Position numbers and translations under genes: made by a program. Of a DNA stretch of 32,399 nucleotides, positions 1,266-28,630 are shown piece after piece; within the stretch, counting starts at the first letter, position 1; each line of letters begins with the position of its first letter. Below the pieces are notes generated by a model. The model was not told the origin of the DNA. It did not search any database and saw nothing but the letters and a program-made list of their open reading frames with translations. The stretch spans positions 1 through 32,399 of IMG/VR virus record IMGVR_UViG_3300044676_003071. One strand, 5' to 3'. The DNA is from a virus. Lineage: Duplodnaviria > Caudoviricetes.

Positions 1266-1761
1266 CCGAGGTCCGCTTCCGAAAGAAGAGGGGAAGCGAC
1301 AGAACCGGCGTGCCCGTAGCAATCTGAAGCTCGTGGCCCAGCACGACCCCGATACCGTTCTGATACCGGAAGCGCCGGATGGCATTTCGGAGACTCAGCG
1401 CGAAGCGTGGGTTGCTTTCTTCTCTTCGGAGCTGGCGCAGCTGGTCAAATCAACAGACCTTCCGTCTGTTCGCAGGCTATGGGGTTACTACCAGCAGCAC
1501 GAGGATTTGACGCGCATCTTTGATAAGGGTCGGATGGTCGCCGGTTCGACGGGACAGCCCAGACTCAACCCGGCGCTGGATGGAATGGTGAAGCTCGAGA
1601 CTGCCATTCATCGTTTGGAGAACGAGCTCGGATTGACGCCTGCGGCTCGGATGCGTCTCGGAATCATGACTGCCGACGCCGCGCTATCACTTGACAGTCT
1701 TAACGAGAGACTGCAAATGGCGGCAGTCGATGAGGAAGAACTGTGGTCAGAAGTTGACTAG
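1258..1761 (+). CDS. Terminase small subunit (P27-like)
   Basis: MGSRGPLPK start, GSTGQPRLNPA and ELGLTPAARMRLG motifs; directly upstream of the large subunit. Confidence 0.85.
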   Translation: MGSRGPLPKEEGKRQNRRARSNLKLVAQHDPDTVLIPEAPDGISETQREAWVAFFSSELAQLVKSTDLPSVRRLWGYYQQHEDLTRIFDKGRMVAGSTGQPRLNPALDGMVKLETAIHRLENELGLTPAARMRLGIMTADAALSLDSLNERLQMAAVDEEELWSEVD

Positions 1762-3292
1762 GCGCAGACCCAAATACAGTCTTGGCTCCGACGTGGCAAC
1801 GTTCATCGAAGCCTTTCTTGTTCATGGGCCCGGCGACGTCTTCGGCCAACCTTTCCGTCTGACGCGCGAGGAGCTGCGCTTCCTTCTTTGGGCCTACGAG
1901 GTCGATTCCTCCGGGCAAAGAATCGTCCGAAGAGGCGTCCGAGGCCTACCAAAGGGCAGCCGCAAGACTGAGTTTGCTGCTGCCGTCGCGGTCGCTGAAA
2001 TGGCAGGTCCGGTTGTCTTCTCGCATTGGGAGGAGAAGCAGGGTCGCAAGGGCGCGCGTGGGATGCGACGACATGACCCCTATGTTGTTGCCGCCGCGTC
2101 GACCTACGAGCAGGCAGACCTCCTGTTCGGAGCTGCGCGGTCGATGATTGAGAACGGTCCGCTGAAGGAGTTCTTCGACCTCTTTGACCGCGAGATTCAG
2201 CTGAAGAATGAACCCGGCGTAATGGTGCGTGTGCCTGCCGTCGCTGGCGCAAACGACGGTCTGCGTCCTACTTTCTGTGTCTTCGATGAGACCCACGAGT
2301 GGACGGGAAACAAGCAGCGCGTGCATCTTGTTTTGGAGAATGGTTTGGCGAAACGGTCAGGCGCGTGGTCGCTGTCGATTACCACTGCCGGGAATCCGAA
2401 GGTCGAATCTGTCGCTTTGTCGCAGTACCAGTATGGCAAGCGCGTGGATTCTGAGGAGTTCGAAGACGAAAGCTTTCTATTCGACTGGCGCGAACCGAAG
2501 GTCAATCTTGATGCCCTTCAGGACGAATCCGTTCTGCGCGAAACGGTAAAGCACGCCAATCCCGAGCAGTGGAAACGAGTCGATGACCTTGTCGCGCGAT
2601 TTCGAGAGATTCCTCTGCACGAGTTTTGCCGGTATCACCTGAACCTTTGGGTCGAACCCGACGAGGAGCGCTGGCTGCCACCCGGAACATGGGACGACCT
2701 CGAATCCGACCGTGTCGTTGAACCTTCCAAGGACGTCAAGATTGTGCTTGGTTTTGATGGTTCATACTCGGGCGACTCTACGGCGCTCGTTGCGGCGACG
2801 GTCGAGGAGCAGCCGCATCTTTGGTTGGTCGGCTTGTGGGAGCATCCCGGTGGGAATGTGCCGTGGCAGGTTGACATCGACGATGTTGAGGCTGCCGTGT
2901 TCCGAATGTTTGAGCAGTACGACGTGGTCGAGATGTCTGCGGACCCCCCTTTTTGGTCGCAGCAGCTTCAGCGGTGGGCTGAGCTATTTGGGGAGGACCG
3001 CGTCATTGCTTTCAATACATTCGTGAGGAAGCGCATGGGGGCAGCGTGCTCGGCCTTCTATCAGGCGGTCACGCAGCAGTCTCTCACGCAGGACGGTTCC
3101 TCAGCGATGGCACGGCATTTGGATTCCGCAGTGCTAAAGGAGACGGCGCAGGGCGCGTACATCACTAAAGAGTCAAAGCAATCACCGCGTAAGATTGACG
3201 CTGCAATCGCCTGTGTCATCGCCTACAACCGTGCCGCTTGGCATCATGCGAATCCGAAGCGGCCTGCCAACGTCGGAGTTCTCGCCCTATGA
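1754..3292 (+). CDS. Terminase large subunit
   Basis: Walker A-like LPKGSRKTE, Walker B CVFDETH, nuclease LGFDGS and KIDAAIA. Start uncertain (TTG 1754, ATG 1730 or TTG 1691, all in frame). Confidence 0.93.
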   Translation: MTRRRPKYSLGSDVATFIEAFLVHGPGDVFGQPFRLTREELRFLLWAYEVDSSGQRIVRRGVRGLPKGSRKTEFAAAVAVAEMAGPVVFSHWEEKQGRKGARGMRRHDPYVVAAASTYEQADLLFGAARSMIENGPLKEFFDLFDREIQLKNEPGVMVRVPAVAGANDGLRPTFCVFDETHEWTGNKQRVHLVLENGLAKRSGAWSLSITTAGNPKVESVALSQYQYGKRVDSEEFEDESFLFDWREPKVNLDALQDESVLRETVKHANPEQWKRVDDLVARFREIPLHEFCRYHLNLWVEPDEERWLPPGTWDDLESDRVVEPSKDVKIVLGFDGSYSGDSTALVAATVEEQPHLWLVGLWEHPGGNVPWQVDIDDVEAAVFRMFEQYDVVEMSADPPFWSQQLQRWAELFGEDRVIAFNTFVRKRMGAACSAFYQAVTQQSLTQDGSSAMARHLDSAVLKETAQGAYITKESKQSPRKIDAAIACVIAYNRAAWHHANPKRPANVGVLAL

Positions 3293-4724: not shown

Positions 4725-4996
4725 TGGCGATTCAGTCAGGACGGCAGACCATTGGAACTGCCGCGACAGCAATCGACGCCTCTTCCAATATGCATTGGCA
4801 ACTCATCATTCACAATGACGACAACACCGCAGATATTTACGTCGGTGGGCCAACGGTTGGGACGGCGACTGGTCTTGCGGTCAACAAGTTGGAGAACATC
4901 CAACTGAGTCTTGCACCGGGCGACCAAGTTTATGCGGTGTCTTCATCTGCGTCGCACACGATTTCGTGGTTCAAGATTGTGAATCATCCATCCTAA
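4724..4996 (+). CDS. Hypothetical beta-rich protein (90 aa), possibly virion-associated
   Basis: TGATG/TAATG coupling to both neighbours; IIHND...IYVGG..V...TG pattern. Confidence 0.7.
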   Translation: MAIQSGRQTIGTAATAIDASSNMHWQLIIHNDDNTADIYVGGPTVGTATGLAVNKLENIQLSLAPGDQVYAVSSSASHTISWFKIVNHPS

Positions 4997-6528
4997 TGCC
5001 GTACTTCATTTCTGACCAGAACCCGGATTGCTCCGGTTGGGCCGTTGAGAAGGAAGACGGCGAGGTAATCGGGTGCCATACGACGAAGCAGGAGGCGGTT
5101 GCGCAGATGGTTGCTGTTTCTATCGCTGAGGACATGGAACCGGGTGGGGAGCGTGCTGCGCCGGACGAACTTGCTGAGGGGGACTTCGTCCGCTGGAACT
5201 CGTCAGGTGGTACGGCGCGCGGTCGTGTCGAACACATCATGCGCGAGGGGACGCTTGGCGTGCCGGATTCTTCCTTCTCCATCAATGCGACCGCCGACAA
5301 TCCTGCCGCGCTCATTCGCATCTACCGTTCCGTCCGTGACGGCTGGGTCGAGACGGAGACGCTTGTCGGGCATCGGTTCTCGACGCTAACGAAGATTGAG
5401 CCGCTGCGCGAGCCGACTCCCGAGTCTGAGGACCGGCAGGTCGACCTTACGCTGCCCGACTACATTCGTGCGGCTGCGTCTCGCGGTCTAGAGTTCTACC
5501 GCGATGGTCTTGGTGGCGACGGTCTTGTCGAGCGGACGATTCGTGAGGCGCGTGCGATGGCGCGCGGCGAGGTGTCTGAAGACAAGGTGATTCGTGTCGC
5601 AGCATGGGCGGCACGGCATGAGCCTGACCTTCGTGCTGATGGTGCGAAGCCGGGTGAGGACGGGTTCCCTACTCCGGGTGCGGTCGCCCATTATCTGTGG
5701 GGGATTCCGACTGGTGATAGATACGATGACGCGCGCGCCTTTTGGGAGCGGAAGGCGACGCAGGTCCGTGAGGAAGAAGGACGCAGCATGATTGAGGCAA
5801 CGCCTGTGGAGCCGCGCAGCAAGAAGTCCGGCATCGAGTTCCGTCAGGTCGACGGCGAGATTCGCGCACTCGACGGTGAGGGCAACCGTTTCGTCGGTTA
5901 CGCGGCGGTGTTCGACTCCGACAGCGAGAACCTTGGCGGTTTCGTCGAGCGCATCCGTCCGGGGGCGTTTGCTAAGACGCTGCGGAACAAGCGCCGGGAT
6001 GTCCGCGCCTACGTCAATCACGATTCCAACATGGTGCTCGCGTCGTCGCGTTCCGGCACGCTGTCGATGTCAGAGGACGACCGTGGGCTGCGTGTCGAGT
6101 TCGACCTGCCCGATGGCGTGTCGTATGCGTCCGACCTTCGCGCCCTGATGAGTGCAGGCATCGTCGACAAGATGAGCTTTGGATTCACCATTCCGCGCAA
6201 GGGCGACGAGTGGTCTGACGACGGAACGCGGCGCGAGCTGCGCGAGGTCATTTTGCATGAGGTGAGTGTTGTGACTGGTCATCCTGCGTACACGGCGACG
6301 GCTGCGAACGTGCGGAGTCTTGACGCGCTTGCGAAGCGCACGGGTCTCGCGGTCGAAGATGTGAGTGCGACGCTCGACGCGCTTGCGGACGGTGAGGAGA
6401 TTGACGCGGAGAAGGCTGACGCGCTCATCGCCGCCATCAAGGGTTCGGTCAAGCAGCCGGAGCCGGACCTCTCGCTGCTCGGGCTGAAGGCGAAGCAGAC
6501 GGAGCTGCTGGCGAAGAAGGTCTTTTGA
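4996..6528 (+). CDS. HK97-type prohead protease with a ~265-aa multidomain N-terminal extension
   Basis: C-terminal half has FVGYAAVFD, YVNHD (His), DKMSFGF (Ser), LHEVSVV (Glu); ATG 4996 overlaps the upstream TAA. Confidence 0.9.
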   Translation: MPYFISDQNPDCSGWAVEKEDGEVIGCHTTKQEAVAQMVAVSIAEDMEPGGERAAPDELAEGDFVRWNSSGGTARGRVEHIMREGTLGVPDSSFSINATADNPAALIRIYRSVRDGWVETETLVGHRFSTLTKIEPLREPTPESEDRQVDLTLPDYIRAAASRGLEFYRDGLGGDGLVERTIREARAMARGEVSEDKVIRVAAWAARHEPDLRADGAKPGEDGFPTPGAVAHYLWGIPTGDRYDDARAFWERKATQVREEEGRSMIEATPVEPRSKKSGIEFRQVDGEIRALDGEGNRFVGYAAVFDSDSENLGGFVERIRPGAFAKTLRNKRRDVRAYVNHDSNMVLASSRSGTLSMSEDDRGLRVEFDLPDGVSYASDLRALMSAGIVDKMSFGFTIPRKGDEWSDDGTRRELREVILHEVSVVTGHPAYTATAANVRSLDALAKRTGLAVEDVSATLDALADGEEIDAEKADALIAAIKGSVKQPEPDLSLLGLKAKQTELLAKKVF

Positions 6529-6552
6529 CCGGCTCTTTCTAAACTTGCCCAC

Positions 6553-6662
6553 AATCGGCCGATATCCGCTGAACTAGGCCGCGTTTGCGACTTGACACTG
6601 CGACGCTCCTTGCTGTACCCTTCTCTTACACGGGGACGGACCCCGGAGAGGAGAACAGCAAG
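6553..6662 (+). promoter_or_regulatory. Promoter P1 with upstream conserved motif, 5' hairpin and RBS
   Basis: AATCGGC 6553, TATCCGC 6563, GAACTAG 6571, TTGACA 6592-6597, 18-bp spacer, TACCCT 6616-6621, CGGGG/CCCCG hairpin 6631-6645, GAGAGGAG RBS; same layout at 24284 and 27914. Confidence 0.85.
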
Positions 6663-7025
6663 ATGGAGACCACGACCGACACGACGGAGCAGACGGTGAC
6701 GCTCTCCGTGCCGACGATGTTCTGGGCCGACCACTACCACCGCGCTTCGGATGACGGGCAGCCGGTGGGCACGCCGGTCAAGGAGGGTCCGAAGAAGACG
6801 ACGGTCGTCTTCGACACCGCCGACGCGCTGCACAACTTCATGCAAGACGCCGCCTACTACACGGACACATGGAAGGGTGGCGAGTGGCGGCGCGACGACG
6901 ACCCGTGGCTCTACTCGCTGGGCCGCTCCGCGAACACGACCAAGGAGTTCATCCGCAAGAACCGCCCCGACCTCTGCGAGGAGTTCAACGCATCACGCTG
7001 GGCCGGTCCGTACATCCGCTACTGA
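6663..7025 (+). CDS. Hypothetical protein (120 aa), moron gene 1
   Basis: ATG 6663 after a strong RBS; C-ending codon bias; no family recognised. Confidence 0.8.
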   Translation: METTTDTTEQTVTLSVPTMFWADHYHRASDDGQPVGTPVKEGPKKTTVVFDTADALHNFMQDAAYYTDTWKGGEWRRDDDPWLYSLGRSANTTKEFIRKNRPDLCEEFNASRWAGPYIRY

Positions 7026-7084
7026 GTCGAAACCCCTTCGGGGGTCAGCCGGACCTCGCCTACCGGCTCTGATGAGACAGGCGA
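7026..7084 (+). ncRNA. Type II hammerhead ribozyme with loop I/3'-tail pseudoknot; predicted cleavage after C7046
   Basis: GUC(7026-28)-GAAA-CCCC UUCG GGGG-UC^-AGCCGG[ACCUCGCCUA]CCGGCU-CUGAUGA-GAC(7076-78); UCGCCU 7056-61 pairs with AGGCGA 7079-84; all core nucleotides canonical. Confidence 0.92.
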
Positions 7085-7103
7085 ACGAGAGGAGACAGAA
7101 ACA

Positions 7104-7400
7104 ATGAAGGCCCACCGCATCGACAACCCGAATGTCGCCATCTCCCACGATGACCCGTGGGCATACCGGATTGCGCCCGGTCTTTATGTCCTAGGCCCGG
7201 TCGCCATCAGCCGCGAGTGCCACAACTTGTCGTGCGACTGCGACCGATACTGGGTGCGTCTGCGCCTAGACGACTATGCCGGTGGCGAACTTGGGGACAG
7301 CCTCGCTGAGTTTCAGACGCTGGACGTTGCGGCAGAGTTCGCATACGCACATCTTGCCATTCACGGCACGACCGAGCAGCGCGGCCTCTACGCGCGCTGA
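7104..7400 (+). CDS. Hypothetical protein (98 aa), moron gene 2
   Basis: GAGAGGAG RBS 7087-7094; contains CHNLSCDC; followed by a terminator. Confidence 0.75.
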   Translation: MKAHRIDNPNVAISHDDPWAYRIAPGLYVLGPVAISRECHNLSCDCDRYWVRLRLDDYAGGELGDSLAEFQTLDVAAEFAYAHLAIHGTTEQRGLYAR

Positions 7401-7413
7401 AGATTCCGGCTCC

Positions 7414-7449
7414 GACGGACCTCTGCTTCGGCAGGGGTTTCGTCTTTTT
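7414..7449 (+). terminator. Intrinsic terminator closing the moron
   Basis: GACGGACCTCTGC-TTCG-GCAGGGGTTTCGTC stem followed by TTTTT. Confidence 0.85.
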
Positions 7450-7546
7450 CATGAGGTAGCATTTCTTCACGCGCCCTACCCACGGGACCGGCACACCCTT
7501 CACGGGAAGCCTCACAATCCAATCCATTCCCACAGGGAGAATCCCA

Positions 7547-8737
7547 ATGTCTCTTGAGTTCATCAAGCGGCAGCAGGAGGAGCGTGCCCGTGCGTGGGAG
7601 GAGGCCAAGGGTCTCCTCGACACCGCCGCTGGCGAGAAGCGCGACCTGACTGCTGCTGAGCAGGAGAAGTACGACGCAATCAACCGTGACCTTGACGACC
7701 GTGCCGCTGTGATTGAGCGTGTGCGTGCGGACGAGGAGCGCGAGATGCGTGCCGCTGAGATGCGTCTGCCCGAGGCTCCGGCCCCGGTCGCGAAGAGCGA
7801 GACGGACGCTGACATCCTTCGTTCGATGGTTCGTGGTGAGCGTCGCTCGCACACGTTTGAGCAGCGCGCGCTGAACACCAGCGACGACTCCTCTGTCGTG
7901 CCCGAGTCGTTCTACTCGACCCTTCAGCAACTCCTCGTCTACGAAGGCCCGATGCTTCGTGGCGATGTCGTCACGCTGCTGAACACGACCTCCGGCGAGA
8001 CCATCAAGGTTCCGACGCAGGCTTCGCGTTCGGTCGCGACCGCGACTGCTGAGGGCGCTATCTTCGGTGAGTCGGAGCCGACGTTCTCGTCCTTCGACCT
8101 GAAGGCGCACAAGTACGGCGCTCTCGTGGCGGTCAGTCGCGAGATTATCGAAGATGCGGGACTCAGCGGTCCTGACCTCATCGGTTTCATCGCGGGCCAG
8201 TTCGCTACGGCGATTGGTACTGCGGTGAACGCTGTCCTCACCACGGGGACCGGCACGGTTCAGCCGAACGGTATTGCGAACGCTGCCGGTTCTGCCCTCA
8301 CGGGTGGCACGGGCGTTGCCGGTGCCTTCACCGCTACGAACCTCATCACCCTCGCCCACAGCGTCGACTCCGCGTATGCGAGCCGTCCGGGTGCCGGGTT
8401 CATGATGCGTCGTGCGACGCTCGGCTCTGTCCGCGCTCTTCAGGACGGGTCCGGGCAGTTCATCTACTCAGTTGGCGCGCCGGGTCTGCCCGACACGCTG
8501 CTGGGTTACCCGGTCATCGAGAACCCCTACGTCCCGGCTGTTGCGACGGGCGCGAAGAGCGTTCTCTTCGGTGACTTCAAGTCGTACCACGTCCGTCAGG
8601 TTCGTGGTATTGAGATTGCCCGTTCGGACGACTACGGCTTCGCCAATGACCTTATTTATTGGCGCGCTGCGGTCAGGCTTGACGGAAATCTTGGACAGTC
8701 TGAGGCTGTCAAGGCGTTCTACGGCGCTGCGTCGTAA
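7547..8737 (+). CDS. HK97-fold major capsid protein with N-terminal delta (scaffold) domain
   Basis: Coiled-coil N-terminus (RDLTAAEQEKYD), AHKYGALVAVSREII, GTGTVQPNGI, TLLGYPV, LFGDF, RLDG. Confidence 0.95.
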   Translation: MSLEFIKRQQEERARAWEEAKGLLDTAAGEKRDLTAAEQEKYDAINRDLDDRAAVIERVRADEEREMRAAEMRLPEAPAPVAKSETDADILRSMVRGERRSHTFEQRALNTSDDSSVVPESFYSTLQQLLVYEGPMLRGDVVTLLNTTSGETIKVPTQASRSVATATAEGAIFGESEPTFSSFDLKAHKYGALVAVSREIIEDAGLSGPDLIGFIAGQFATAIGTAVNAVLTTGTGTVQPNGIANAAGSALTGGTGVAGAFTATNLITLAHSVDSAYASRPGAGFMMRRATLGSVRALQDGSGQFIYSVGAPGLPDTLLGYPVIENPYVPAVATGAKSVLFGDFKSYHVRQVRGIEIARSDDYGFANDLIYWRAAVRLDGNLGQSEAVKAFYGAAS

Positions 8738-8823: not shown

Positions 8824-9981
8824 ATGAAGCCTGCGATTCATTGGTGGTCGAACTCTCCACACGCGCCGACCGGCTATGGCACTCAGACGAAGGCCGTCGC
8901 GCACCGGCTGGCGAACGCCGGGTTCCCCACGTCTATCGGCGCGAACTATGGCGCGGAGACGGTTGGGATTGACGACCGGACGAAGGCCGGGAAACCGTGT
9001 CCCATCTACCCACGCGGCTTCGACCCGTATTCGCAGGACACCATCGTCGCGCATTGGCGTGATTGGGCGCGAAAGCACAAGGACCGCCCCTGCCATCTTG
9101 CGACGCTCTACGACTCGTGGGTGCTGAAGAACCCGGAGTTGCTCACGCAGGATATGGGCCACATCTTCTCGTGGACACCGATTGACCACATTACGGTCCC
9201 GAAGGATGTTGCGGCATGGTGTGCGCGTCCGCAGGTGACAGCAGTTGCAATGTCCAAGCACGGGCAGGAGGCGCTTGCCAAGCGTGACATCGACTCCGTC
9301 TACATCCCTCACACGGTTGAGAAGGTGTTCGCGCCTACGGATGGCGGCGGCGCTGTGATGCAGGTGCCGGACGACCACTTCGTTGTGATGATGAACGCAG
9401 CGAACAAGGGGATTGCCCCAACCCGAAAAGCGTTCACGGAAAATCTGCTTGCGATGTCTGCGTTTATGAAGGCGCACGATGACGTTTCTCTTTATCTGCA
9501 CACGGAGCTCCACATGAGCGGCGGCATCAACTTGCCGGAACTCATCGAGCATTGCGGTCTGCCGAAGGAACGGATTCACGCGCCGAACGCATACGCCTAC
9601 CGGATGGGCGGTTACACGGACTCAGACCTTGCCGCGATGTATTCCCGTGCGGACGTTCTGCTTGCGGTGAGCATGGGCGAGGGTTTCGGCATCCCGACGA
9701 TTGAGGCGCAGGCGTGCGGCACTCGTGTTATCGGGTCGAACGCTGCGGCTACGCCGGAGTTGCTCGCCGATGATTGCTGGGCTGTCGAGGGGCAGCCGGA
9801 GTGGAATCCGATGCAGTCGGCGTTTTGGTTCCGTCCTCACATCCGTCCGATTGTGGATGCGCTGGAGGAGGCGTACAACGCGCCGCGCGGACCTTCGCAG
9901 CAGTGCATTGAGAAGGCGAAGGAGTATGCGGCAGAGACGGTCGTGAAGCGCGACTGGTTCCCGATGTTGGAGGCGGCATGA
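8824..9981 (+). CDS. Glycosyltransferase, GT4-like (GT-B fold)
   Basis: N-terminal SNSPHAPTGYG; EGFGIPTIEAQACG (E-x7-E) signature. Confidence 0.9.
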   Translation: MKPAIHWWSNSPHAPTGYGTQTKAVAHRLANAGFPTSIGANYGAETVGIDDRTKAGKPCPIYPRGFDPYSQDTIVAHWRDWARKHKDRPCHLATLYDSWVLKNPELLTQDMGHIFSWTPIDHITVPKDVAAWCARPQVTAVAMSKHGQEALAKRDIDSVYIPHTVEKVFAPTDGGGAVMQVPDDHFVVMMNAANKGIAPTRKAFTENLLAMSAFMKAHDDVSLYLHTELHMSGGINLPELIEHCGLPKERIHAPNAYAYRMGGYTDSDLAAMYSRADVLLAVSMGEGFGIPTIEAQACGTRVIGSNAAATPELLADDCWAVEGQPEWNPMQSAFWFRPHIRPIVDALEEAYNAPRGPSQQCIEKAKEYAAETVVKRDWFPMLEAA

Positions 9982-10871
9982 GACATCTTGTGACGGGTGG
10001 GCTGGGATTCATCGGGCAGCATCTTGTCGACCTGCTGCTCGTGCGCGGCGATGACGTGCTGATTGTTGACGACAACAGGGCCGGGAATCCGGTTCGTGAC
10101 GACTGCGAGGTGCTTCAAGACACGTTCGGGTCGTGGGACTACTACGAACAGTTCGCTGCCGTGTGGCATCTTGCCAGCCCGGTCGGGCCGGTCGGGGTTC
10201 TGAATCAGGCCGGTCGCATCACGGGTGAGGTGTTCCGGGGTGCGGAGAACGCCGCGATGCTTGCGATGCGCTCTGACGTGCCGCTCATTCATGTGTCGAC
10301 GAGCGAGGTGTATGGCGGTGGGGACCGTGGCTTGTGCGCTGAGGACATGGACTGCCGGGTGTCGACGAACCTGTCTGCGCGGCTGGAGTATCAGACGGCG
10401 AAGTTGGCGGTCGAGGTAATGCTTCAGAACACGGACGGGCTAGACGCGCGCATCATCCGTCCTTTCAATGTTTCGGGTGCAGGGCAGAAGCCGGAGGGCG
10501 GTTTCGTTCTGCCACGGTGGAAGCAGCAGTTGCAGACCGGGCAGGCGCTTACGGTCTACGCGCCGGGTACTCAGCGGCGTGCGATGACCCATGTCCATGA
10601 CATTGTCGAGGGGATGTATGCCGTATGGCAGATGGGTGAGCCGGGGCTGTGGAATCTCGGCAACCCGGACAACGTCATCTCCATGGTCGACCTTGCTGAC
10701 CTGTTCGTAGATGTTGCCGGGGGACGTTGGGAAATGGTTGACCCCATCGAGCTGCACGGCGCGAAGTTTGTCGAGGCGGCAGAGAAGTTCCCTGATGCGA
10801 CGAAGGCGATGTCGCTGGGTTGGAATCCGTCGCGTTCGCTGCGCGAGATTGTCGAGGACGTGCTGCTGTGA
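9978..10871 (+). CDS. NAD-dependent nucleotide-sugar epimerase/dehydratase (extended SDR, UDP-glucuronate decarboxylase-like)
   Basis: VTGGLGFIG, HLASPVG, STSEVYG, YQTAK (YxxxK), IRPFNV. Confidence 0.9.
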   Translation: MRHLVTGGLGFIGQHLVDLLLVRGDDVLIVDDNRAGNPVRDDCEVLQDTFGSWDYYEQFAAVWHLASPVGPVGVLNQAGRITGEVFRGAENAAMLAMRSDVPLIHVSTSEVYGGGDRGLCAEDMDCRVSTNLSARLEYQTAKLAVEVMLQNTDGLDARIIRPFNVSGAGQKPEGGFVLPRWKQQLQTGQALTVYAPGTQRRAMTHVHDIVEGMYAVWQMGEPGLWNLGNPDNVISMVDLADLFVDVAGGRWEMVDPIELHGAKFVEAAEKFPDATKAMSLGWNPSRSLREIVEDVLL

Positions 10872-11566
10872 TTCCGCTGCTTGGCGTTCCGGTCCTGAAC
10901 CGTGAGGACTTGGCAGCGCGCATGGTGCGGTCGGTCGACCATCCCGTGAACGAACTCCTTGTCGTGGTGAACGCTTCCGATAAGGAGAAGGTTGTCAGCA
11001 CGATTCGCGAGGCTGCGGACGACAATCCGGCTATTCGGAACACGACATTCTCGCTACCGTCTTTCAACCTTGGGTGTGGCGGTTCGTGGAATCACATCAT
11101 CCGTCATCGTCCGGTCGGCCCTTGGTGGTTGATTGTGAACGCCGACATCGAGTTTGCACCGGGCGACCTTGACCGGCTGACAGAGACGATGGTGCCGGAG
11201 CCGATGGTCGCGACCTTGTTTGAGTTTGGTGCGTTCGCGCCGAACGCGGCGGCGGTCGACCGGGTGGGCTGGTTCGACGAGAACCTGCACCCGATGTATT
11301 TTGAGGACAATGATTACAAGCGTCGGATGTCTATTGCAGGCGTCCCCTATCTTCGGGTTGACAGCCGGACGCGGCATGACAACAGCAGCACTATCGGGTC
11401 GGACGCGCGTCTTGCTCTGCGTAATCAGGAGACGTTCGGCCTGAACGCCGTCTACTATTTGGAGAAGTGGGGTGGGCCACCCGGCAGGGAGACCTTCACC
11501 GTCCCGTTCGATGACGGTGGGGAAATCCCGGTGTCGCGTGCTCGTCTCGCAAGTCAGGCGTGGTAG
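10868..11566 (+). CDS. Glycosyltransferase, GT2-like (GT-A fold)
   Basis: GTGA overlap; VPVLNR, NLGCGGSWN, IVNAD, GWFDENLHPMYFEDND. Confidence 0.85.
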   Translation: MIPLLGVPVLNREDLAARMVRSVDHPVNELLVVVNASDKEKVVSTIREAADDNPAIRNTTFSLPSFNLGCGGSWNHIIRHRPVGPWWLIVNADIEFAPGDLDRLTETMVPEPMVATLFEFGAFAPNAAAVDRVGWFDENLHPMYFEDNDYKRRMSIAGVPYLRVDSRTRHDNSSTIGSDARLALRNQETFGLNAVYYLEKWGGPPGRETFTVPFDDGGEIPVSRARLASQAW

Positions 11567-23874: not shown

Positions 23875-24158
23875 CACTCGGCCCGTATGTCATCCGGGTG
23901 TTGACTGACGAAGCGACGGACATCCGTCTCGCGGAGGATTCGGTCGACGGGGATTCGGATGTGCGTCGGGGCGTGATTCGTGTGAGGTCGGACCTTGACC
24001 ATGCACGGTTCCGTGAGGTGCTGCTGCATGAACTGCTGCATCACATTGTCGGGCTGACGCATCTGCAAACGCGGTGGTCGGATGAGGAGCAGGAGGAAGT
24101 GATTCGTGCGCTGTCGCCTTGGTTGGCGATGGTGGCGACGGTGGGTGTGTCGGACTAA
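23847..24158 (+). CDS. Small HExxH zinc metallopeptidase-like protein
   Basis: IRVRSDL...EVLLHELLH...EE; start uncertain. Confidence 0.7.
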   Translation: MSSGFPVEIALGPYVIRVLTDEATDIRLAEDSVDGDSDVRRGVIRVRSDLDHARFREVLLHELLHHIVGLTHLQTRWSDEEQEEVIRALSPWLAMVATVGVSD

Positions 24159-24165
24159 TACGAAA

Positions 24166-24204
24166 CGCTCGCCTGCCCCGGCGTTTCCGGGCTTATGGCG
24201 AGCG
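24166..24204 (+). terminator. Hairpin at the end of the late operon (possible terminator without a U-tract)
   Basis: CGCTCGCC 24166-73 / GGCGAGCG 24197-204 with an inner CCGG/CCGG stem. Confidence 0.4.
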
Positions 24205-24283
24205 CTCCGTAGTGGTAGTTCTGGCACCCCTGCCTGTCCCTGACCACGTCGGGCACGCTAGGCGTTTTGCGGCAGGTTTCGCA

Positions 24284-24402
24284 AATCGGCCCGATTCGGC
24301 CGAAATCGGCAGAACTAGTGCGGGTTTGGTGCTTGACAGGAGCGCGCCCTCTCCTGTACCCTACGCTTACACGGGGATAGCCCCCGGAGAGAGGAGAACA
24401 AG
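24284..24402 (+). promoter_or_regulatory. Promoter P2 with upstream conserved motif, 5' hairpin and RBS
   Basis: AATCGGC 24284, ATTCGGC 24294, AATCGGC 24304, GAACTAG 24312, TTGACA 24333-38, 18 bp, TACCCT 24357-62, CTTACACGGGGA..CCCCGGAGAG leader shared with P1. Confidence 0.85.
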
Positions 24403-24624
24403 ATGAGCACCGCGACCCCCACCGACATCGACTACCGCCGCGCAAACGGAACCCTCGATGAGGCTGCCGCGCAAATCCGAGAGGCGCACGAGACCCTTCT
24501 CGCCGCATGGCAGCTGGTCCGCGAACTCAACCACGGCGCATACAACGAGCACGAGCTGGCGCTGATGGAAGCGGCAAAGTTCGCCGCGCTCGCATACAAG
24601 GCGCTCCCGAAGAACCACATCTGA
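24403..24624 (+). CDS. Hypothetical protein (73 aa)
   Basis: First gene after P2, strong RBS. Confidence 0.8.
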   Translation: MSTATPTDIDYRRANGTLDEAAAQIREAHETLLAAWQLVRELNHGAYNEHELALMEAAKFAALAYKALPKNHI

Positions 24625-24684
24625 GTCGAAACCCCTTCGGGAATCCGGTGAGGACTGACCGCCCACCGCTGACGAGACAGGTCG
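24625..24684 (+). ncRNA. Type II hammerhead ribozyme, second copy with imperfect stem III; predicted site after C24645
   Basis: GUC-GAAA-CCCC UUCG GGAA-UC^-CGGUG[AGGACUGACCGCC]CACCG-CUGACGA-GAC; UGACC 24656-60 pairs with GGUCG 24680-84. Confidence 0.8.
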
Positions 24685-24699: not shown

Positions 24700-24837
24700 A
24701 TGAGCAAGCGGACGGAAGAGGCGACCAGCACAAGCGAGGCGCGCGATGCGATGAGAATGGCGCTGGCCTCTTACATCGGATGGAAGGCGCTGATGGCAGA
24801 GGCAGAGCGCCTTGCGAAGCAGGAGGTGCAGGCATGA
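24700..24837 (+). CDS. Hypothetical protein (45 aa); absent from the ORF track
   Basis: GAGAGGAG RBS; MSKRTEEATSTSEARDAMRMALASYIGWKALMAEAERLAKQEVQA*; ATGA overlap with the next gene. Confidence 0.75.
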   Translation: MSKRTEEATSTSEARDAMRMALASYIGWKALMAEAERLAKQEVQA

Positions 24838-25070
24838 GAGGCGGCAAGGAGTACCGGCCCCGGCTCCTGATGGGCGGCGATGGTTCACACGTCCTAGTGA
24901 TTCGCGGCGAGAAGGTCGCACGTATCCGCGAGAGCGGTATCGGAAGGTTCACGCTCACCATGCAGGACGGGCGCGAGCTGGGCCGCTATCGCACCCGTAA
25001 AGCGGCGGTCGAAGCGCTCCTACCGATGCTCGCGCAACTTGACGCCGGGAGCAGACTTGACGTAGCTTGA
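24834..25070 (+). CDS. Hypothetical protein (78 aa)
   Basis: AGGAGG RBS; 3' part of track ORF 24507-25070. Confidence 0.7.
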   Translation: MRGGKEYRPRLLMGGDGSHVLVIRGEKVARIRESGIGRFTLTMQDGRELGRYRTRKAAVEALLPMLAQLDAGSRLDVA

Positions 25071-28008: not shown

Positions 28009-28182
28009 ATGAAGACCACCAAGGTCCGCTTCACCGCCACCATCGAGATTGACATCGAGGAGTGGGCAGAGGCCTACGGCCTTGAGCCGACCGCTCGCGC
28101 CGTTCAGCAGGATGTTCGCGAGGCGGTGTTCAACCACATTCACAACATGGCGGTCGCTCCTCTTGGGGTTACCGCACGCTGA
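28009..28182 (+). CDS. Hypothetical protein (57 aa)
   Basis: First gene after P3; MKTTKVRFTATIEIDIEEWAEAYG. Confidence 0.8.
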   Translation: MKTTKVRFTATIEIDIEEWAEAYGLEPTARAVQQDVREAVFNHIHNMAVAPLGVTAR

Positions 28183-28194
28183 CCACAGACGACT

Positions 28195-28226
28195 TGGGGG
28201 CGCGTTCGGGGAAGGGCGCGCCCCCA
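28195..28226 (+). other. 13-bp GC-rich intergenic hairpin
   Basis: TGGGGGCGCGTTC 28195-207 / GGGCGCGCCCCCA 28214-226. Confidence 0.65.
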
Positions 28227-28247
28227 CCAACCTGAGAGGAGCAGCAC

Positions 28248-28409
28248 ATGACCACCACCATCAAGCAGGTCAGCCACTACGAGGTCGTTGGCGACCGTGG
28301 CGTCGCGTTCATCGCGCACCGCCCGGAGGATGCGATTGACCTGCGCGACCAGAACGGCATGGCAATCGCCCGCATCGTCTTCACCGACCGCACGACAAAG
28401 ACCATCTGA
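28248..28409 (+). CDS. Hypothetical protein (53 aa); absent from the ORF track
   Basis: GAGAGGAG RBS; MTTTIKQVSHYEVVGDRGVAFIAHRPEDAIDLRDQNGMAIARIVFTDRTTKTI*. Confidence 0.75.
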   Translation: MTTTIKQVSHYEVVGDRGVAFIAHRPEDAIDLRDQNGMAIARIVFTDRTTKTI

Positions 28410-28435
28410 CCTACCGGCCTGAGAGGAGACAGACC

Positions 28436-28630
28436 ATGAGCACCAAGACCCACACCTTCAACGAGATGTTCGGCATCGTCACCTACGAAGTTCCGTTCGG
28501 CTGCGAGTGCTGCGGCACCAAGGTCGACACCTACTACCAACTGCGCGGCGACCGCCATGGGGCGCACTCCTGCGGCGACTGTGCTGAGCAGCACGTCGAG
28601 GAAGTCAACGCCGGGATTTGGGAGTGGTGA
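28436..28630 (+). CDS. Small zinc-finger protein
   Basis: GAGAGGAG RBS; CECC and CGDC. Confidence 0.75.
   Translation: MSTKTHTFNEMFGIVTYEVPFGCECCGTKVDTYYQLRGDRHGAHSCGDCAEQHVEEVNAGIWEW

Follow-up and report, generated by a model that had tools for sequence, protein, structure and literature searches.

A type II hammerhead motif at the junction of two small orphan phage genes: a candidate mRNA-processing site and swap point

The window analyzed in this study is the whole stretch of 32,399 nucleotides of IMG/VR record IMGVR_UViG_3300044676_003071 (Duplodnaviria; Caudoviricetes), which is the whole assembly. The genes found among the 51 ORFs scanned include those for a terminase, portal, protease, capsid, tail, amidase, exonuclease, Erf-like annealing protein, RusA and WhiB. 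This gene content is that of a tailed phage. The presence of the WhiB gene and a GC content of 58-63% suggest that the host of this phage is an actinobacterium. Seven sequencing runs contained at least half of the sampled words. All seven are labelled estuary metagenome, and four of them are possible sources.

Between the prohead protease gene and the major capsid gene, the window carries a cassette that is a two-gene moron. In this cassette a promoter-like repeat is followed by ORF1, its stop codon, a hammerhead ribozyme motif (HHR1), a ribosome-binding site (RBS), ORF2 and a terminator-like hairpin. The features are listed here; numbers beginning with L denote loci that we compared with the window.

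4966-6528, + strand: prohead protease gene, the left flank (phrog_80, E 8.8e-66)
6568-6621, + strand: promoter-like repeat heading the cassette, a conserved upstream motif with -35 TTGACA at 6592-6597, an 18-nt spacer and -10 TANNNT at 6616-6621
6663-7025, + strand: ORF1, an orphan of 120 aa with 4 other homologues of 70-84% identity
7026-7084, + strand: HHR1, a type II hammerhead (Rfam RF02276, descriptor scan, near-identical copies in L156 and L158)
7087-7094, + strand: Shine-Dalgarno-like run (SD), 9 nt before ATG 7104, which travels with the ribozyme between phages
7104-7400, + strand: ORF2, an orphan of 98 aa with one other homologue of 83% identity
7417-7450, + strand: intrinsic-terminator-like hairpin closing the cassette; a similar hairpin follows the slot-1 genes of L133, L157 and L163
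7547-8737, + strand: major capsid gene, the right flank (phrog_10, E 1.3e-71)

The stop codon of ORF1 (7023-7025) directly adjoins the start of stem II of the ribozyme at 7026, and HHR1 fills the intergenic gap. Neither ORF1 nor ORF2 matched any PHROG or Pfam family. ORF1 gave no usable Atlas match, the Atlas matches of ORF2 were all below 0.9 and were hypothetical proteins only, and the search of viral contigs for loci encoding relatives of ORF1 or ORF2 returned none. On the other side of the capsid gene, glycosyltransferase, nucleotide-sugar epimerase and galactosyltransferase genes lie at 8824-11566, before the head-tail adaptor genes; they are suggestive of virion glycosylation.

The elements of HHR1, all on the + strand, are as follows.

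7026-7028 with 7076-7078: stem II (G-C, U-A, C-G), open
7029-7032: GAAA
7032-7036 with 7041-7045: stem III of 5 bp (A15.1-U16.1 and four C-G), with a UUCG cap at 7037-7040
7044-7046: GUC triplet, with the predicted cut after C7046
7047-7052 with 7063-7068: stem I, 6 Watson-Crick pairs
7069-7075: core CUGAUGA
7056-7061 (loop I) with 7079-7084 (3' tail): pseudoknot, 6 Watson-Crick pairs

An earlier note on this DNA had described the core, the GUC triplet, the stems, the UUCG cap and the pseudoknot, and we found every one of them where the note had placed it. It mentions neither the adjoining ORF1 stop codon nor the further copy at 24625-24684, which is described below. The note had also proposed a check with the Rfam hammerhead model. 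Model RF02276 matched 7025-7086 with 37.7 bits (E 0.00024), which is a marginal pass, with a small margin over the gathering score of 37 bits. Its statement that type II hammerheads with a pseudoknot between loop I and the 3' tail are known from phage DNA agrees with this match and with the accessible text of Perreault 2011 (PMC3088659). HHR1 was the sole gathering-level Rfam match in the window. When both strands of the window were scanned with descriptors of types I, II and III, the HHR1 site was the only one returned; in 60 Markov-shuffled windows, the same scan found 0.03 loose matches on average and zero strict ones.

The conserved residues of a hammerhead core are all present in HHR1, that is, CUGANGA at C3-A9, then G12, A13, A14 and A15.1, and U16.1 with H17. 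The pairs adjacent to the core are also all present, namely A7047-U7068 in stem I, C7028-G7076 in stem II and A7032-U7045 in stem III. Loops close stems I and III and stem II is open, which is the topology of type II. The pseudoknot, for which at least 4 bp are required, has 6 pairs, and the 59-nt motif contains no extra domain. In X5, a DNA run that is not flagged as a possible source, a contig over 6200-7994 showed 0 differences from the window.

A nested, pseudoknot-blind fold of 7010-7100 did not recover the hammerhead, and its stability was no better than that of shuffles (z 0.72). Because the pseudoknot cannot be modelled in such a fold, this result is expected, yet it does not count as support. 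The nested fold favors pairing of the last ORF1 codons (7000-7010) with both strands of stem I, at -46.2 kcal/mol; the enforced HHR1 fold without the pseudoknot had -38.0 kcal/mol, and the pseudoknot duplex alone had -8.5 kcal/mol. The competing pairing is absent from the copies in L156 and L158 and so is not conserved; for this reason we rejected a conserved anti-ribozyme pairing with the end of ORF1. We conclude that HHR1 is a real and complete type II hammerhead motif, and probably a catalytically active one.

For a wider set of such motifs, we searched viral contigs with a pattern in which stem II, the core and two bases of the tail were fixed. This gave at least 132 loci, and 146 distinct motifs among the matches listed. 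This set includes related sequences, that is, sequences and not independent events are counted. Among the matches listed, stem III had at least 5 pairs in 137 of the 146 motifs (3 or fewer in 8/146), and stem I had at least 5 pairs in 133/146. A pseudoknot of at least 5 bp was possible in 111 of the 146 motifs among the matches listed, compared with a mean of 30 and a maximum of 44 when partners were shuffled. A long ORF ended -1 to +6 nt from stem II in 123/146 motifs among the matches listed (random positions: mean 8.6, maximum 15), and an SD-led ORF lay downstream in 102/146. In those 123 stop-adjoining motifs among the matches listed, the distance from the stop codon to the cut was 20-40 nt with a median of 24; in HHR1 it is 21 nt.

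The geometry of HHR1 is found in 92 distinct 3' halves, which represent 98 of the 146 motifs among the matches listed. In this listed subset, 545 of the 552 stem I cells and 468 of the 552 pseudoknot cells were paired, and the maxima in 1000 column shuffles were 360 and 403, respectively. The three middle pseudoknot pairs, which the pattern leaves free, included G-C, A-U and C-G or U-A types among the matches listed. When a looser parser was used, 28 of 111 contigs or loci among the matches listed held at least two motifs. In IMGVR_UViG_3300008255_000242 (L025-L028), there are at least 7 pattern matches in about 6 kb, one per gene junction.

The promoter-like repeat occurs in three copies in the window, and each copy heads a block of small orphan genes. 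We call these blocks slot 1, which is the protease-capsid cassette described above, slot 2 and slot 3. The features of the latter two are as follows.

24309-24362, + strand: promoter copy 2, slot 2, heading ORFs 24403-24624 (73 aa), 24700-24837 (45 aa) and 24834-25070
24625-24684, + strand: HHR2, type II hammerhead-like, with the same stop-ribozyme-RBS layout as HHR1; an intact version is present in L153
27929-27982, + strand: promoter copy 3, slot 3, heading small ORFs, with a hairpin-plus-RBS junction at 28180-28250, short RBS junctions and no hammerhead

Searching with the promoter motif returned 2 viral loci and 10 from metagenomes, and nine of these were distinct after removal of duplicates. 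That is, L153, L159 and L165 were counted once, as were L133, L154 and L161, and L162 was treated as L157. The arrangement TTGACA-18 nt-TANNNT was present in 3/3 copies of the window and in 9/9 of the relatives' loci, TTGACA being fixed by the search pattern. Since a strict sigma-70 scan of 6300-7700 gave 0 promoters, the putative promoter function rests on the repetition and on the relatives. Between the repeat and the RBS there is usually a short leader hairpin; the repeat is kept in the relatives, and the genes behind it vary.

In HHR2 the core, a 5-bp stem I and a 5-bp pseudoknot are intact. The sequences of stem I and of the pseudoknot differ from those of HHR1, yet they pair. Because stem III of HHR2 carries two C-A mismatches beside the core (15.2-16.2 and 15.3-16.3), and with an AUC triplet in place, HHR2 of the window is predicted to be impaired in cleavage. 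Rfam does not detect HHR2 even at E 5. L153 holds the HHR2 motif with an intact stem III, which scores 35.8 bits. The listed contigs of X5 stop at 24024 and resume at 24652, and the depth drops from about 44 to about 24 over 24024-24652, which hints weakly at a variable slot 2 in the population. The RNA runs X20 and X24 gave contigs on capsid and tail genes only, with zero depth in the bins of both ribozymes, and hold no evidence on expression.

The relatives show that the ribozyme, the genes and the promoter do not stay together. In the protease-capsid slot, L133, L155, L157 and L163 share the promoter with the window and have different ORFs. No hammerhead was found by pattern or by Rfam in these four slot-1 cassettes, of which that of L155 is incomplete and the others reach the terminator; in two of the four, two ORFs are joined by a hairpin or by an RBS alone. 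L135 and L136, which are about 67-72% identical to the window, have the protease-capsid slot without a cassette. The slot-2 relatives L153, L156, L158 and L164 have four hammerheads in three loci, with none in L164, and the flanking backbone of L153, L158 and L164 is 65-72% identical to that of the window. There is no hammerhead in the slot-3 relative L160.

Three copies of the HHR1 type lie in L156 and L158, each with 1-2 differences from the window in 59 bases. The differences are confined to 7038 (loop III) and 7073 (N7), both of which are catalytically free positions. The four copies of HHR1 have four different upstream ORFs and four different downstream ORFs, and the downstream ORFs have no BLASTP match with one another. 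In L158, an ORF of 57 aa lies between two HHR1 copies. The 350 nt upstream and a 122-aa ORF have the same sequence in L153 and L158, with one loop III base differing, and the two loci diverge at the first base past the cut site, where L153 continues into HHR2 and L158 into HHR1. Near-identical copies are thus found in different slots with differing ORFs, and these results therefore indicate that the module moves between slots and that gene content changes at the module. An exact search of viral contigs with the 3' half of HHR1 gave 0 matches, and that with the 3' half of HHR2 gave 1 match, which was the L153 contig. In contigs from 4 runs, no joint at the HHR1 cassette was present among the 10 joints listed.

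Other junctions and elements were also observed in these slots. The long hairpin-plus-RBS junction of the window at 28180-28250 lies in slot 3, and that of L155 at 1473-1517, which is 87% identical to it over 45 nt, lies in the protease-capsid slot. We regard it as a second, apparently portable type of junction, which is free of a ribozyme. At 28407-28438, 9 bases after a stop codon equal 7059-7067 of HHR1 and are followed by an RBS; this junction may be the deletion remnant of an HHR1 copy, or it may be due to chance. A tRNA-like domain, an 80-nt Rfam match to tmRNA, lies at 2239-2318 of L153, at 2241-2320 of L164 and at 1751-1819 (- strand) of L158, at a distance of about 180 nt upstream from the promoter of slot 2. 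The match has 60.2 bits (cut-off 47) and spans both ends of the model, there is no tag reading frame, and ARAGORN does not call the domain. In the window, no tmRNA was found by Rfam or ARAGORN.

Our preferred reading, to which we give a probability of roughly 0.55, is that HHR1 constitutively cleaves itself after C7046, so that the message of two genes would be cut into single-gene mRNAs whose ends are structured. On the same reading, the module would also be a point at which small genes are swapped. The steps would be as follows. The host polymerase would transcribe the promoter, ORF1, ribozyme, ORF2 and terminator early, and the pseudoknot would speed cleavage, with no ligand being required. 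The 5' product is predicted to end one base past the 5-bp UUCG hairpin and the 3' product to start on the first base of stem I. That is, the ORF1 mRNA would terminate 21 nt past its stop codon, with a GC-rich UUCG hairpin and a 2',3'-cyclic phosphate. At the start of the ORF2 mRNA, stem I, whose first base would carry the 5'-OH, and the pseudoknot would form a protected leader that is independent of the upstream gene and resembles that of RiboJ. Recombination at the module would swap small genes together with ribozyme halves, neither of which would be broken. Crossovers at the cut site would keep function because stem III on one side and stem I with the pseudoknot on the other are self-contained, and only the 3-bp stem II links the halves.

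Two observations limit this reading. Cleavage itself appears to be dispensable for such cassettes, because stem III of HHR2 in the window is broken and the slot-1 cassettes of the relatives are free of hammerheads. In addition, the ability of the last codons of ORF1 to pair with stem I in nested folds counts against processing.

The first alternative is that the module is kept mainly as a handle for swapping at the DNA level, or as a hitchhiker, that is, a repeated junction of stop codon plus RBS in which cleavage is nearly neutral. The near-identical modules between unrelated ORFs in different slots fit this explanation, as do the persistence of the damaged HHR2, the presence of the hairpin-plus-RBS junction in two slots (28180-28250 and L155) and the exonuclease and Erf-like annealing protein encoded in the window. 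The PeSL cassettes in the accessible text of Arbiol 2010 (PMC2839356) are a precedent. However, the differences among HHR1 copies fall only at catalytically free positions, and the stems and the pseudoknot covary across the viral motifs among the matches listed, so that selection on the RNA fold is needed. We therefore think that this alternative is unlikely, although it is the strongest one.

Exchange of ribozyme halves can be considered from the viral motifs as follows. Among the matches listed, the 5' half was common and the 3' half was not in 14 of 102 within-contig pairs and in 25 of 3974 pairs between contigs. The reverse, a common 3' half with a different 5' half, was seen among the matches listed in 1/102 pairs within contigs and in 13/3974 between contigs. 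In these half-sharing counts one duplicate (L016) may persist among the two pairs in which both halves are the same, and L081-L132 were not grouped by contig. As the 5' halves are short, their sharing may reflect duplication instead of exchange. In the preferred reading, half-sharing would arise by DNA recombination and selection, with the exonuclease and the annealing protein of the phage as the likely agents. An exchange at the RNA level is also conceivable, in which the ribozyme halves of cleaved RNAs re-ligate via the shared stem II and the chimera is written into phage DNA. The divergence of L153 and L158 directly past the cut and the 14/102 pairs sharing only the 5' half among the matches listed are compatible with it. 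DNA recombination in the shared 21-nt 5' half with selection for an intact pseudoknot would account for the pattern equally well, and none of the 51 window ORFs scanned was seen to encode a reverse transcriptase. We consider such an exchange at the RNA level highly improbable.

It is somewhat harder to credit than the DNA handle, and on the whole rather unlikely, that cleavage serves to lower expression. In this explanation, ORF2 mRNA would undergo 5'-to-3' decay or ORF1 mRNA would lose its terminator, and a short pulse of early accessory proteins would result. Both new ends are paired in the predicted products, and exonucleases require unpaired ends. A strong SD also follows in 102 of the 146 motifs among the matches listed. 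On the other side, the accessible part of Weinberg 2019 (PMC6765202) contains the precedent of glmS, in which the 5'-OH product can be degraded and cleavage lowers expression, and this review leaves differing stabilities of the products as a possibility.

The earlier note had suggested that the proximity of the pseudoknot to the RBS could influence the translation of 7104-7400. In such a switch, the pseudoknot or the state of cleavage would decide whether the RBS of ORF2 can be reached. The last base of the pseudoknot is at -20 from the ATG, at the edge of a 30S footprint, and the probability of the SD being unpaired was 0.37 when the active fold was enforced in uncut RNA, through pairing with ORF1 coding sequence. 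However, the SD is not sequestered by any strand of the ribozyme when folding is free, as it was then unpaired at 0.91 in uncut RNA and 0.63 in the cut product; the value for the cut product was 0.55 when stem I was enforced and the pseudoknot strands were held out. The gap from the pseudoknot to the SD ranged from -2 to 25 nt across the 146 motifs among the matches listed. The predicted accessibility of the SD in 100 motifs among the matches listed was 0.54 uncut and 0.58 cut, with 21 gaining and 14 losing more than 0.1, which is no net change on cutting. That is, neither a conserved occlusion of the SD, nor a fixed geometry, nor a constant class of downstream gene was found, and the downstream genes differ from copy to copy. 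These results do not bear out the suggestion of the note. We rejected the RBS switch as the best reading on the grounds of SD accessibility, the variable gap and the changing downstream gene, and regard it as improbable. An indirect effect on ORF2 through the new 5' end is likely, and a steric effect where the 30S footprint has its edge is conceivable.

Cleavage might also be tuned by the translation of ORF1. While terminating at 7023-7025, a ribosome would occupy stem II and GAAA, and ribosomes on the last ORF1 codons would free stem I, so that cutting would report the translation of ORF1. The stop codon overlaps or adjoins stem II in 88/146 motifs (offsets -1 and 0) among the matches listed; among the matches listed, 82 have TA before stem II, and in 65 of these the resulting TAG ends a long ORF; and 7000-7010 competes for stem I in the nested fold. 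This competing pairing with upstream coding sequence is, however, not common to the L156 and L158 copies. Furthermore, an A precedes stem II in 133/146 motifs among the matches listed; because this A may be structural, the overlap with the stop codon can be an economy of space. We find coupling of this kind very doubtful.

The weakest explanation, which we consider barely credible, is that tandem modules excise single-gene RNAs that circularize into circular mRNAs through their 5'-OH and cyclic phosphate. The ORF of 57 aa between two HHR1 copies in L158 and the several motifs in many viral contigs among the matches listed would suit it, but the window cassette has one ribozyme only, and Perreault 2011, in its accessible text, sought spliced or circular products and found none (PMC3088659). 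Likewise, two ribozymes of the same polarity flanking a unit, as in retrozymes, are not found in 6568-7450 and are found only in L158.

We compared the locus with known systems. In the early operon of phage T7, RNase III sites are cut between genes of the early polycistronic message; this processing needs a host enzyme and leaves 5'-phosphate ends. The hammerhead also cuts between genes, but it needs no enzyme and leaves a 5'-OH and a cyclic phosphate.

Type II hammerheads were described in Perreault 2011, and according to its accessible text the pseudoknot is needed for fast cleavage, clusters of prophage hammerheads flank single genes that are not constant, and processing of long transcripts was proposed; three tandem prophage arrangements cleave in vitro and one in E. 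coli (PMC3088659). The accessible text of Olzog 2021 reports that three type II hammerheads of D. vulgaris near phage-like genes cleave in vivo (PMC8782182), and that of Weinberg 2019 calls the role of bacterial hammerheads largely elusive (PMC6765202). As far as the accessible description of the RF02276 hammerheads goes (PMC3088659), HHR1 resembles them in the core, the stems, the 6-bp pseudoknot, the phage context and the non-constant small genes, and shows no structural difference from them. Compared with these precedents in the same accessible text, the HHR1 module moves with 1-2 differences per 59 nt between slots of one phage group, and the window genome also holds the damaged paralogue HHR2.

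Recombination and mini-circles of PeSLs in T4-type phages are demonstrated in the accessible text of Arbiol 2010 (PMC2839356). PeSLs are alike in that repeated regulatory units flank orphan genes where relatives differ, and the three-copy promoter plays a like part here. In contrast, a PeSL as described there consists of promoter and terminator, whereas the junction here is a ribozyme plus RBS with promoter and terminator at the ends of the cassette, and recombination is shown for PeSLs but inferred for the HHR1 junction. That is, the relatives' gene content does change at the repeated unit here, and this unit does not combine promoter and terminator.

RiboJ, in the accessible text of Clifton 2018, raises protein 2- to 10-fold and transcript about 2-fold (PMC6206723). 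In both cases a self-cleaving ribozyme upstream of the RBS would fix the downstream leader whatever precedes it. As far as the same text describes it, RiboJ is engineered and placed after a promoter, whereas HHR1 is natural, lies after a stop codon and would also supply a 3' hairpin to the upstream mRNA. Searches of the literature that asked whether hammerheads act as shuffling cassettes or occur in phages of actinobacteria found nothing on point, within a coverage that leaves out most subscription papers.

In conclusion, the HHR1 locus offers no new chemistry or architecture, since clusters of phage hammerheads between variable genes have been known since 2011 in the accessible account of PMC3088659. 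What it adds is tight evidence for the portability of the junction and a pointer to Streptomyces phage Triumph (host S. lividans). This locus (OQ190479.1 43060-50135, L166), found through a weak match to the motif, has nine Hammerhead_II matches in 7 kb; seven of the nine are at or above the gathering score, and none is among the annotated features of the record there. The small genes among which these matches lie include an OCR-like antirestriction gene. Anoxybacillus phage A403 (L167 1479-1544) is a second cultured example; its type II hammerhead scores 39.7 bits, lies downstream of an antirepressor gene and is immediately followed by an RBS and a small gene. As Triumph is cultured, it offers a test system for mRNA ends, half-lives and knock-outs. 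The present loci amount to a natural comparison, in which one nearly unchanged module is found in different slots with different gene pairs on its two sides, an intact paralogue stands beside a damaged one, and sister cassettes are free of the ribozyme. This comparison fits a portable junction that would process mRNA and mark the points at which small genes are swapped.
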